Positions 13,560 to 13,990 of a DNA stretch of 64,000 nt are shown in pieces. The first letter of the stretch is position 1, and every line of letters starts with the position of its first letter. A program made the translations under genes and the position numbers. The notes below the pieces were generated by a model. The model did no database searches and had not been told where the DNA came from. It saw only the letters and a list, made by a program, of their open reading frames with translations. Source of the stretch: Eledone cirrhosa (Eukaryota); the NCBI GenBank assembly GCA_964016885.1, contig OZ024742.1:244280001-244344000 (forward strand). The letters run 5' to 3'.

Positions 13560-13576
13560 ATCATTACCACAGCAGA

Positions 13577-13661
13577 GGTCCGATGAGCTTTTGATTCCAG
13601 AGTCGGGCCAGATCGATAGAGATCGAACCTTGAGCTGATCAATAGCAAAACGCATGTCACC
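13577..13661 (+). ncRNA. Candidate type I hammerhead ribozyme with extended stem II (degenerate copy)
   Basis: GGT-CCGATGA-GCTTTTGAT...ATCAATAGC-AAAAC-GCAT-GTC-ACC. Stem I is GGT/ACC and stem II pairs at 8 of 9 positions. The paralogous segments near 51995 and 55590 keep GCGAAAC. Confidence 0.55.
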
Positions 13662-13990
13662 AATCAATAAATGTAATGGAGACATAACAAATCATCCTTG
13701 TATTATTATTATATATATAGATATAGATATAATTCAATTCATGTAAAAACCAAAGATTATAGTTCAAATCATTTTATTAATTTCTATATCCATTTAGATT
13801 TAACGAAATGTAATTGCAAACAATTTGCAGATTAATTGATTAAGTCAACAAACATTGCAATCACATATCACTTATATATATATGTGTGTGTGTGTTAGCT
13901 AATCAATTAATCAACCAGCTGTAGTGTAAACAGACATAAAGCACTCCACAACTTGGGTTCCTTAAAGTACCAATAAGGTATCAGACAGAA

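Follow-up and report, generated by a model that had tools for sequence, protein, structure and literature searches.

At positions 13561–13709 the window (the whole 64,000-nt stretch of Eledone cirrhosa DNA that was analysed) carries a sequence that is almost certainly a hammerhead-derived end of a Penelope-like element (PLE). Judged by its sequence, the element belongs to an autonomous Hydra-clade PLE, whose hammerhead has an extended 60-nt stem II and whose core varies among subfamilies at positions 4 and 6. On balance we favour the view that these variant cores are attenuated ribozymes still under selection, with slow cutting the likely condition of the U4C and U4C+A6U subfamilies.

The window copy and its surroundings

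The earlier note, made from the letters of the window, had described a hammerhead-like arrangement at this place, and its parts are confirmed at 13577–13661. The copy is laid out as follows:

13561..13709, + strand: 3'-end fragment of a 5'-truncated Hydra-clade PLE copy of subfamily A (92% identity to locus L002)
13562..13567, + strand: 5' strand of a distal stem I helix, predicted by constrained folding (partner 13673–13678)
13577..13579, + strand: 5' strand of proximal stem I, from the sequence (partner 13659–13661)
13580..13586, + strand: 5' core strand, positions 3–9, with U4C and a private C-to-T change at position 7
13587..13646, + strand: extended 60-nt stem II, 9-nt outer arms enclosing 42 nt
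13647..13650, + strand: 3' core strand, positions 12–15.1, with a private G12A change
13650..13658, + strand: stem III strand and predicted cleavage site, after C17 at 13658

The copy is flanked by TA-rich runs, and the optional terminal tail of ~100 nt is absent. Stem II consists of a 9-bp helix on the outside, a pair of short helices further in and, at its tip, a hairpin of 4 bp, and stem III, an 8-nt palindrome in intact copies, retains six of its eight pairs. A comparable distal stem I helix is predicted in subfamilies C, C', B, B2 and A, with its register shifted in B2. We note that four tandem copies of an 18-nt AT-rich unit (13484–13559) lie directly at the 5' junction of the insertion, and that similar short duplications are also found at junctions in L010 and L106.

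Relatives of the window copy were collected by a DNA search of the 3.0-Gb assembly, which gave 3,992 first-look candidates, with 40 scored. In a set of 30 loci of relatives, two of which are one place, core position 4 is C in 27 and G12 is present in 22, so U4C is inherited as the state of the subfamily, and the A that replaces G12 in the window copy is private decay. The U at position 7 is likewise private, both being CpG-type changes. The atypical CCGAUGA core of the earlier note is thus family-level at its position 4 and a peculiarity of this one copy at position 7. G12 is the general base of the hammerhead (PMC6155905, in the part available), and the window copy, having lost it, is predicted to be unable to cut. 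Folded by itself the copy does no better than shuffled sequences (z –0.6 to –0.95), and under constrained folding its hammerhead lies 8.6 kcal/mol above the minimum-energy fold. That the arrangement is no accident is seen in the family, from the genome matches and the stem II covariation described below.

The 3' half of the window copy had also been equated in the earlier note with the arms of palindromes at 51.8 kb and 55.5 kb. They are related and not the same sequence: identities are 83% and 80% to the 51.8 kb arms and 79% and 84% to the 55.5 kb arms, which indicates sister subfamilies. The arms are:

51689..51941, – strand: left arm of an inverted insertion of subfamily B (U4C+A6U), tail present, ending inside the core (95.5% to B copy L191)
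51943..52074, + strand: right arm of the same subfamily B insertion, ending inside stem II (96.2% to L191)
55372..55582, – strand: left arm, with tail, of a second inverted insertion, without a core
55577..55661, + strand: right arm of the second inverted insertion

The second insertion is intermediate between subfamilies A and C. A MITE or foldback element was considered for these palindromes and rejected, as the arms are element 3' ends with variable junctions.

Several other repeats lie in the window. Two minimal canonical-core hammerheads with a 13-nt stem II, at 14650–14681 (–) and 55027–55058 (+), belong to another abundant PLE-type family, the copy at 55.0 kb being changed at A13, and a canonical-core hammerhead with a 26-nt stem II at 54296 (–) is found in L112 too. 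Copies of an abundant SINE-like repeat, which often adjoins PLE ends at other loci, occupy 13990–14200 and 51490–51660; it may resemble octopus SINEs. A satellite of 49-nt units with a strong C skew (79 registers at about 95% identity) fills 59833–64000.

The parent element

The earlier note's description of a Penelope-type, (TA)n-associated type I hammerhead, to which a GIY-YIG/RT open reading frame (ORF) might be linked, held up. Followed upstream in longer copies, the sequence passes through an extended non-coding region before it meets the end of such an ORF, of the Hydra clade, which the relatives of the window copy reach 1–2.4 kb further upstream, and the 3' ends enter TA repeats in most of the copies shown (an informal tally). 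Among 20 stretches of 8–9.5 kb, L181 holds an 861-aa open frame (P0001), and L182 holds the whole element, with direct end repeats that each contain a hammerhead, a frameshifted ORF between them and a unit length of 4,809 nt. This length exceeds the <3 kb that is typical, and not diagnostic, of the Hydra clade. The two loci share a junction that runs from the terminal tail through a short leader to the start codon, which in L182 lies ~200 nt downstream of the predicted cut site. The PLE hallmark is present as direct repeats (pseudo-LTR) in L182 and as inverted arms in the window and in L183 and L200, where the upstream arms are the inverted ones. The non-autonomous retrozyme-like or foldback family of the earlier note is contradicted by these full copies with a GIY-YIG/RT ORF; its palindromes are inverted truncated PLE insertions, and an inverted, 5'-truncated arrangement is described for PLE insertions in the available text of Craig et al. 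2021 (PMC8557442).

P0001 and P0002 carry the DKT motif, a CxCX5C linker, CxxC and CxH and have no CCHH, and the endonuclease of P0001 is a C-terminal GIY-YIG domain; the motifs were compared by eye with the Hydra definition and with published Hydra proteins. At the position of the N-terminal RWK motif L181 has LWR and the DNA of L182 has RWR. Part of the members of the atlas neighbours of P0001 (at 0.96–0.98) carry HTH_animal, GIY-YIG or RVT_1, while searches of Pfam and PDB with P0001 gave nothing useful (Pfam itself no match) and a metagenome scan with it confirmed no relative. As far as the available text of Craig et al. goes, Hydra-clade PLEs such as Hydra-1_Obim and Hydra-1_Amil have in common with this family the C-terminal GIY-YIG, DKT, the CxCX5C linker, CxxC and CxH, the lack of CCHH, (TA)n targets, a type I hammerhead near the 3' end and inverted truncated copies (PMC8557442). 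Hydra PLEs, their hammerheads and their inverted insertions are therefore already known. The present family differs in its 4.8-kb unit with a 0.9–2.4 kb 3' UTR, where the clade is generally <3 kb, and in its stem II of 60–62 nt, where the 26 Hydra families in the available part of File S2 have at most about 24 nt; U4 and A6 stand in 26/26 of those families, unlike the variant cores here (PMC8557442).

The endonuclease was initially read as that of the Neptune clade, a reading that was dropped as the published motifs and proteins match Hydra instead; P0001 is without the CX2-5CxxC linker, CCHH or N-terminal endonuclease by which Neptune and Naiad were judged. A Naiad element with a hidden hammerhead was rejected as well, the endonuclease being C-terminal and four motifs of the family being absent from the Naiad consensus DNA supplement. 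Nor is this a non-LTR retrozyme, since the copies are dispersed and linked to a coding ORF and are not non-coding tandem units.

The dN/dS ratio of the ORF is 0.28–0.45 in 10/10 natural copy pairs, a sign of purifying selection, and the value of 0.29 for B2 against B, two double-variant copies, argues that the variant lineages were autonomous. In three contig sets of one sample copy depth is steeply 3'-biased. We note two further observations at these loci. An open frame of 1,155 codons adjoins the element at L181 4883–8347; it has no Pfam match and is probably a simple-repeat region. Seven near-identical copies of an endonuclease remnant follow one another at ~60–95 kb spacing in G000:C12:17.09-17.49 Mb (L159, L160, L163–L165, L169, L170), a series pointing to a large tandem segmental duplication.

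Core states and the stem II scaffold

Subfamilies P, A/A0, C, C' and B/B2 are all built on one 60-nt stem II scaffold and differ in their cores, which are canonical in P (112 pattern matches) and C, U4C in A, A0 and C' (49 exact matches for C') and U4C+A6U in B/B2 (834 exact matches). U4 is present in 17 of 25 P loci, the remaining loci being A-like copies. Among 199 distinct gapless copies of C, C', B, B2 and A, a set that came from mixed searches and for C' partly from a pattern containing its own core, the majority core letters differ only at positions 4 and 6. A pattern of core plus stem III that is free at these two positions has 2,114 exact matches in the genome and 0 in the reversed control; 100 listed matches include 60 with U6, 19 with C4 alone and 21 canonical (hand count). 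Positions C3, G5, G8, A9, G12, A13 and A14 are fixed across families. The canonical core of CUGANGA, GAAA and UH is present in P, C and the sister family D (below), and is not found in the window copy (U4C, G12A) or in A, C', B, E, F and G.

CpG decay at positions 4–5 affects 12/55 listed A rows and 6/100 listed B rows (hand counts), which suggests that B is younger than A. The combination of U4 with U6 occurs in 2/100 listed B rows, as expected from CpG decay, and was seen as no master lineage. A canonical-core form of subfamily A was considered and rejected: its U4 copies are scattered and balanced by G5A copies (7 against 5 of 55 listed A rows, hand count) and so are read as CpG decay. The A0 set, which bears on the same question, gives 5/56 plus one double, and a mild link of the U4 copies of A with two other columns persists.

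A tree of the 3'-end DNA of the ORF, built from 39/46 rows after exclusion of four near-identical duplicates and three poor rows, gives the order A – C0 – C – C' – B0 – B – B2 with support of 99–100 on the main branches, and places the canonical-core copies between A and C'/B at the same branch support. In the hammerhead-region tree P lies outside A and C. From these placements, position 4 changed at least twice in the A/C/B series, with or without reversion. Within the C'-to-B series U4C came first and A6U second. A protein tree rooted by distant octopod-type Hydra copies tentatively places the A/C/B root between C0+A and C+B, with modest support.

Two sister families, D and E, were found by a profile search of the collected loci and not by a core pattern. 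They are 58–73% identical to the others and have a stem II of 61–62 nt, and their stems I and III and cleavage triplet differ from those of the other families. D is canonical, with U4 in 25/25 loci and A6 in 23/25, and E has C4 and U6 in 25/25 loci. A Hydra-like endonuclease remnant is present upstream of E on the same strand in 2/20 longer loci. Joining B and E as one clade is rejected (p-AU 0.02, on 86 columns with positions 4 and 6 excluded, E being on a long branch). The first pair of stem II is mismatched in D, E and its relative. A covariance model made from the family also finds a 57-nt canonical family that was absent from the training set (L369).

On a 14-row alignment the type I three-way junction with stems I, II and III is found, and 9/27 pairs change on both sides (7/22 in stem II and 2/3 in proximal stem I), so that the long structured stem II seen in the earlier note is substantiated as a 60-nt stem with two-sided covariation in the family. 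Paired cells amount to 91.4%, against 85.6% for shuffled and 28–35% for slid alignments; this control is lenient, because the structure that was counted was taken from the same sequences and adjusted by eye. RNAalifold by itself predicts 17 stem II pairs, 6 of them with two-sided changes, and does not predict stems I and III from the family alignment. Stem III gives no covariation because its pairs do not vary. One stem II pair can be followed from C-G through U-G to U-A in the real subfamilies C, A0 and A. Stem II alone has z-scores of –1.9 to –3.8 in five subfamily copies, and its inner sequence is conserved across families that are 60% identical. Standard searches miss the fold, as predicted: Rfam gave zero hammerhead family matches in the window and none in six further loci that include canonical-core copies, which we attribute to the 60-nt stem II.

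In monomers the hammerhead is never the minimum-energy fold in any copy, lying 5.8–10.5 kcal/mol above it. When dimer structures were constructed and their energies evaluated, the double hammerhead fell below twice the monomer minimum in five of seven family copies (C', B, B2, D and E) and above it in the tested C and A copies; the window copy was far above. The 8-nt palindromic stem III appears, in these models, suited to a double hammerhead.

The same core changes occur elsewhere in the genome. A relaxed scan of 1.48 Mb of collected loci found more than 20 PLE-type hammerhead families, most of them canonical, whose stem II lengths form a near-continuous series from 13 to 62 nt within one genome. 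Family F has a minimal 13-nt stem II and C4 and U6 in 15/15 loci, and it follows an open RT+GIY-YIG frame that is not significantly similar to P0001 (E 0.065); F is a young PLE of another clade than the P0001 element. From its motifs we take F to be probably a canonical Penelope/Poseidon-type element. Minimal hammerheads with a short stem III are reportedly the topic of Lunse et al. 2017. F and a sister with A4 and U6 (U4C+A6U or U4A+A6U; L396–L410, L008, L081, L333, L391) have 3,470 exact matches, and 100 listed ones comprise 63 A4, 36 C4, 1 G4 and 0 U4 (hand count) under a pattern that fixed the stem and that canonical relatives with other stems would escape. Two stem II pairs are compensated between F and its sister. 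Family G (L125, L146, L187, L400) has U4C in 4/4 copies, a 20-nt stem II and a stem III resembling that of E; C3, G5, G8 and A9 were preset in the pattern that found both F and G. A scan of 1.5 Mb of non-random loci for any two core changes with strict stems found only F, a U3-A8 swap, scattered decay and one mis-paired match.

Two other hammerhead-bearing loci deserve mention. The known U3-A8 core swap is carried by a family of minimal hammerheads at L080 and eight other loci (12 rows), and at L185 5610–7474 five units of 466 nt follow one another head to tail, each containing a canonical minimal hammerhead, with one more unit inverted, probably a retrozyme-like or partial-tandem array.

Possible function of the variant cores

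Several features of these hammerheads have precedents. The metazoan PLE minimal hammerheads of Cervera and De la Pena 2014 are likewise of type I and share the 2-bp stem III, the palindromic loop, dimer-type folding and the location in terminal repeats, and their U3-A8 core swap occurs in the E. cirrhosa genome too; in the available text of that paper their helix II is at most 7–8 bp with a small loop, and families with U4C, U4A or A6U are not described (PMC4209133). Metazoan non-LTR retrozymes have a type I hammerhead related to PLE terminal repeats, as here, and are, in the part of that source available, non-coding tandem arrays, whereas the present copies are dispersed and truncated from a coding element (bioRxiv 10.64898/2026.07.22.740005). 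An enlarged stem II region is also present in the PLE hammerheads of PLE-X1_sMoe and PLE-X1_sTam, which are plant EN-minus elements with a canonical 5' core and a single large-loop stem, and for which multi-family covariation is not shown in the available part of File S2 (PMC8557442). Among natural variants, the available text of Perreault et al. 2011 gives U4C in one viroid and A6C in one phage, both less active, and does not list A6U; these are rare single examples, in contrast to the master states of thousands of copies here, where the double change is recurrent (PMC3088659). In the accessible portions of the literature on variant-core and cephalopod PLE hammerheads we found no family-level U4C+A6U or U4A+A6U core and no covarying 60-nt stem II.

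We propose that two hammerheads in one tandem transcript would use the palindromic stem III to pair with each other and would cleave after position 17. The cut in the upstream repeat, ~200 nt before the start of the ORF, would release an RNA of unit length that could be translated and, once ligated or if cutting is incomplete, reverse transcribed. Each examined insertion that retains the region continues past the cut site, so the template either stays uncut there or is re-joined, and a weak or regulated ribozyme would therefore be favoured, its slowness being no handicap. The confinement of the core changes to positions 4 and 6, seen in the sequences, fits continued selection on the active site, which would need the geometry of that site and tolerate or even favour a low rate. 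In classic hammerhead mutagenesis these two positions count among the conserved sites that tolerate change better. PLE hammerheads have been proposed to cut as dimers and cut poorly in vitro even as dimers (PMC4209133, PMC6765202, in the parts available). According to the available text of PMC3088659, U4C lowers activity in vitro, yet the viroid that has it stays infectious, and the activity of A6C is low but detectable; viral hammerheads with minimal rates in vitro have been followed up for cleavage inside infected hosts (PMC13725137, available part).

It is possible, at a distinctly lower probability, that the variant ribozymes do not cut, that the junction and the long stem II form a platform for the RT-endonuclease and that transposition proceeds from uncut tandem transcripts. 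The available part of a pairwise mutagenesis study of a type III hammerhead (PMC9901934) reports that every single or double change in the CUGA turn, apart from the C3-G8 swap, left activity low and gave no strong rescue; low activity is thus predicted here, and U4C+A6U may be effectively dead. Naiad PLEs are described as spreading without canonical hammerheads (PMC8557442, available text), and the retention of sequence beyond the cut site and the conservation of inner stem II sequence between 60%-identical families agree with such a platform, as does the presence of the double change in the youngest and most numerous intact copies (60/100 listed rows, hand count). In predicted folds, C4 and U6 can also pair with the first nucleotides of the stem III strand. 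However, without cutting C3, G5 and H17 should drift, and they are fixed in A, C', B, B2 and E, all found by homology; furthermore, the multi-copy families in the two-change scan (1.5 Mb of non-random loci) have the 4/6 change or the U3-A8 swap only.

We regard as tentative, and rather doubtful, the proposal that C or A at position 4 together with U6 is a second working active site, reached at least three times by PLEs of two clades and sustained by protein or stem II. That non-U4 with U6 is a second fully active core, in which A6U compensates the loss of U4 with possible help from stem II or protein, is unlikely in our estimation. B, E and F each arrived at the same two letters, the C'-to-B series had U4C before A6U, and a U4+U6 master lineage is missing from what was seen (2/100 listed B rows), all of which such a core would explain; against it, subfamily A and family G have spread carrying only U4C, and the CUGA turn has no strong positive epistasis in vitro in the available data of PMC9901934. 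It is very improbable that the ribozyme is a dispensable passenger of the PLE, its core changes being neutral drift in master copies and their pattern ascertainment: Craig et al. raise the idea that hammerheads are perhaps mere parasites of PLEs (PMC8557442, available text) and the independent events are few, but the lineages found by homology have at least five core changes between them, every one on just 2 of the 11 conserved positions and with the same letters repeated, and the stems go on compensating where the cores are variant.

Attenuated cutting under continued selection is thus the reading we prefer, and it bears on a role of the hammerhead in PLEs that is called unclear in the available text of PMC8557442. 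The family offers a natural allelic series on one scaffold (canonical, U4C and U4C+A6U), in thousands of copies with near-intact ORFs and with the same changes repeated in other families, from which it could be learned whether the elements require cutting, have reduced it or have substituted protein binding for it. The covarying 60-nt stem II extends the known architecture of PLE hammerheads. A dead core in the youngest lineages, if true, would mean that PLEs can move without cleavage. A new active core, if true, would widen the hammerhead consensus; many thousands of ribozymes would then be invisible to canonical-core searches, and some PLEs reported to be without a hammerhead may carry such cores.
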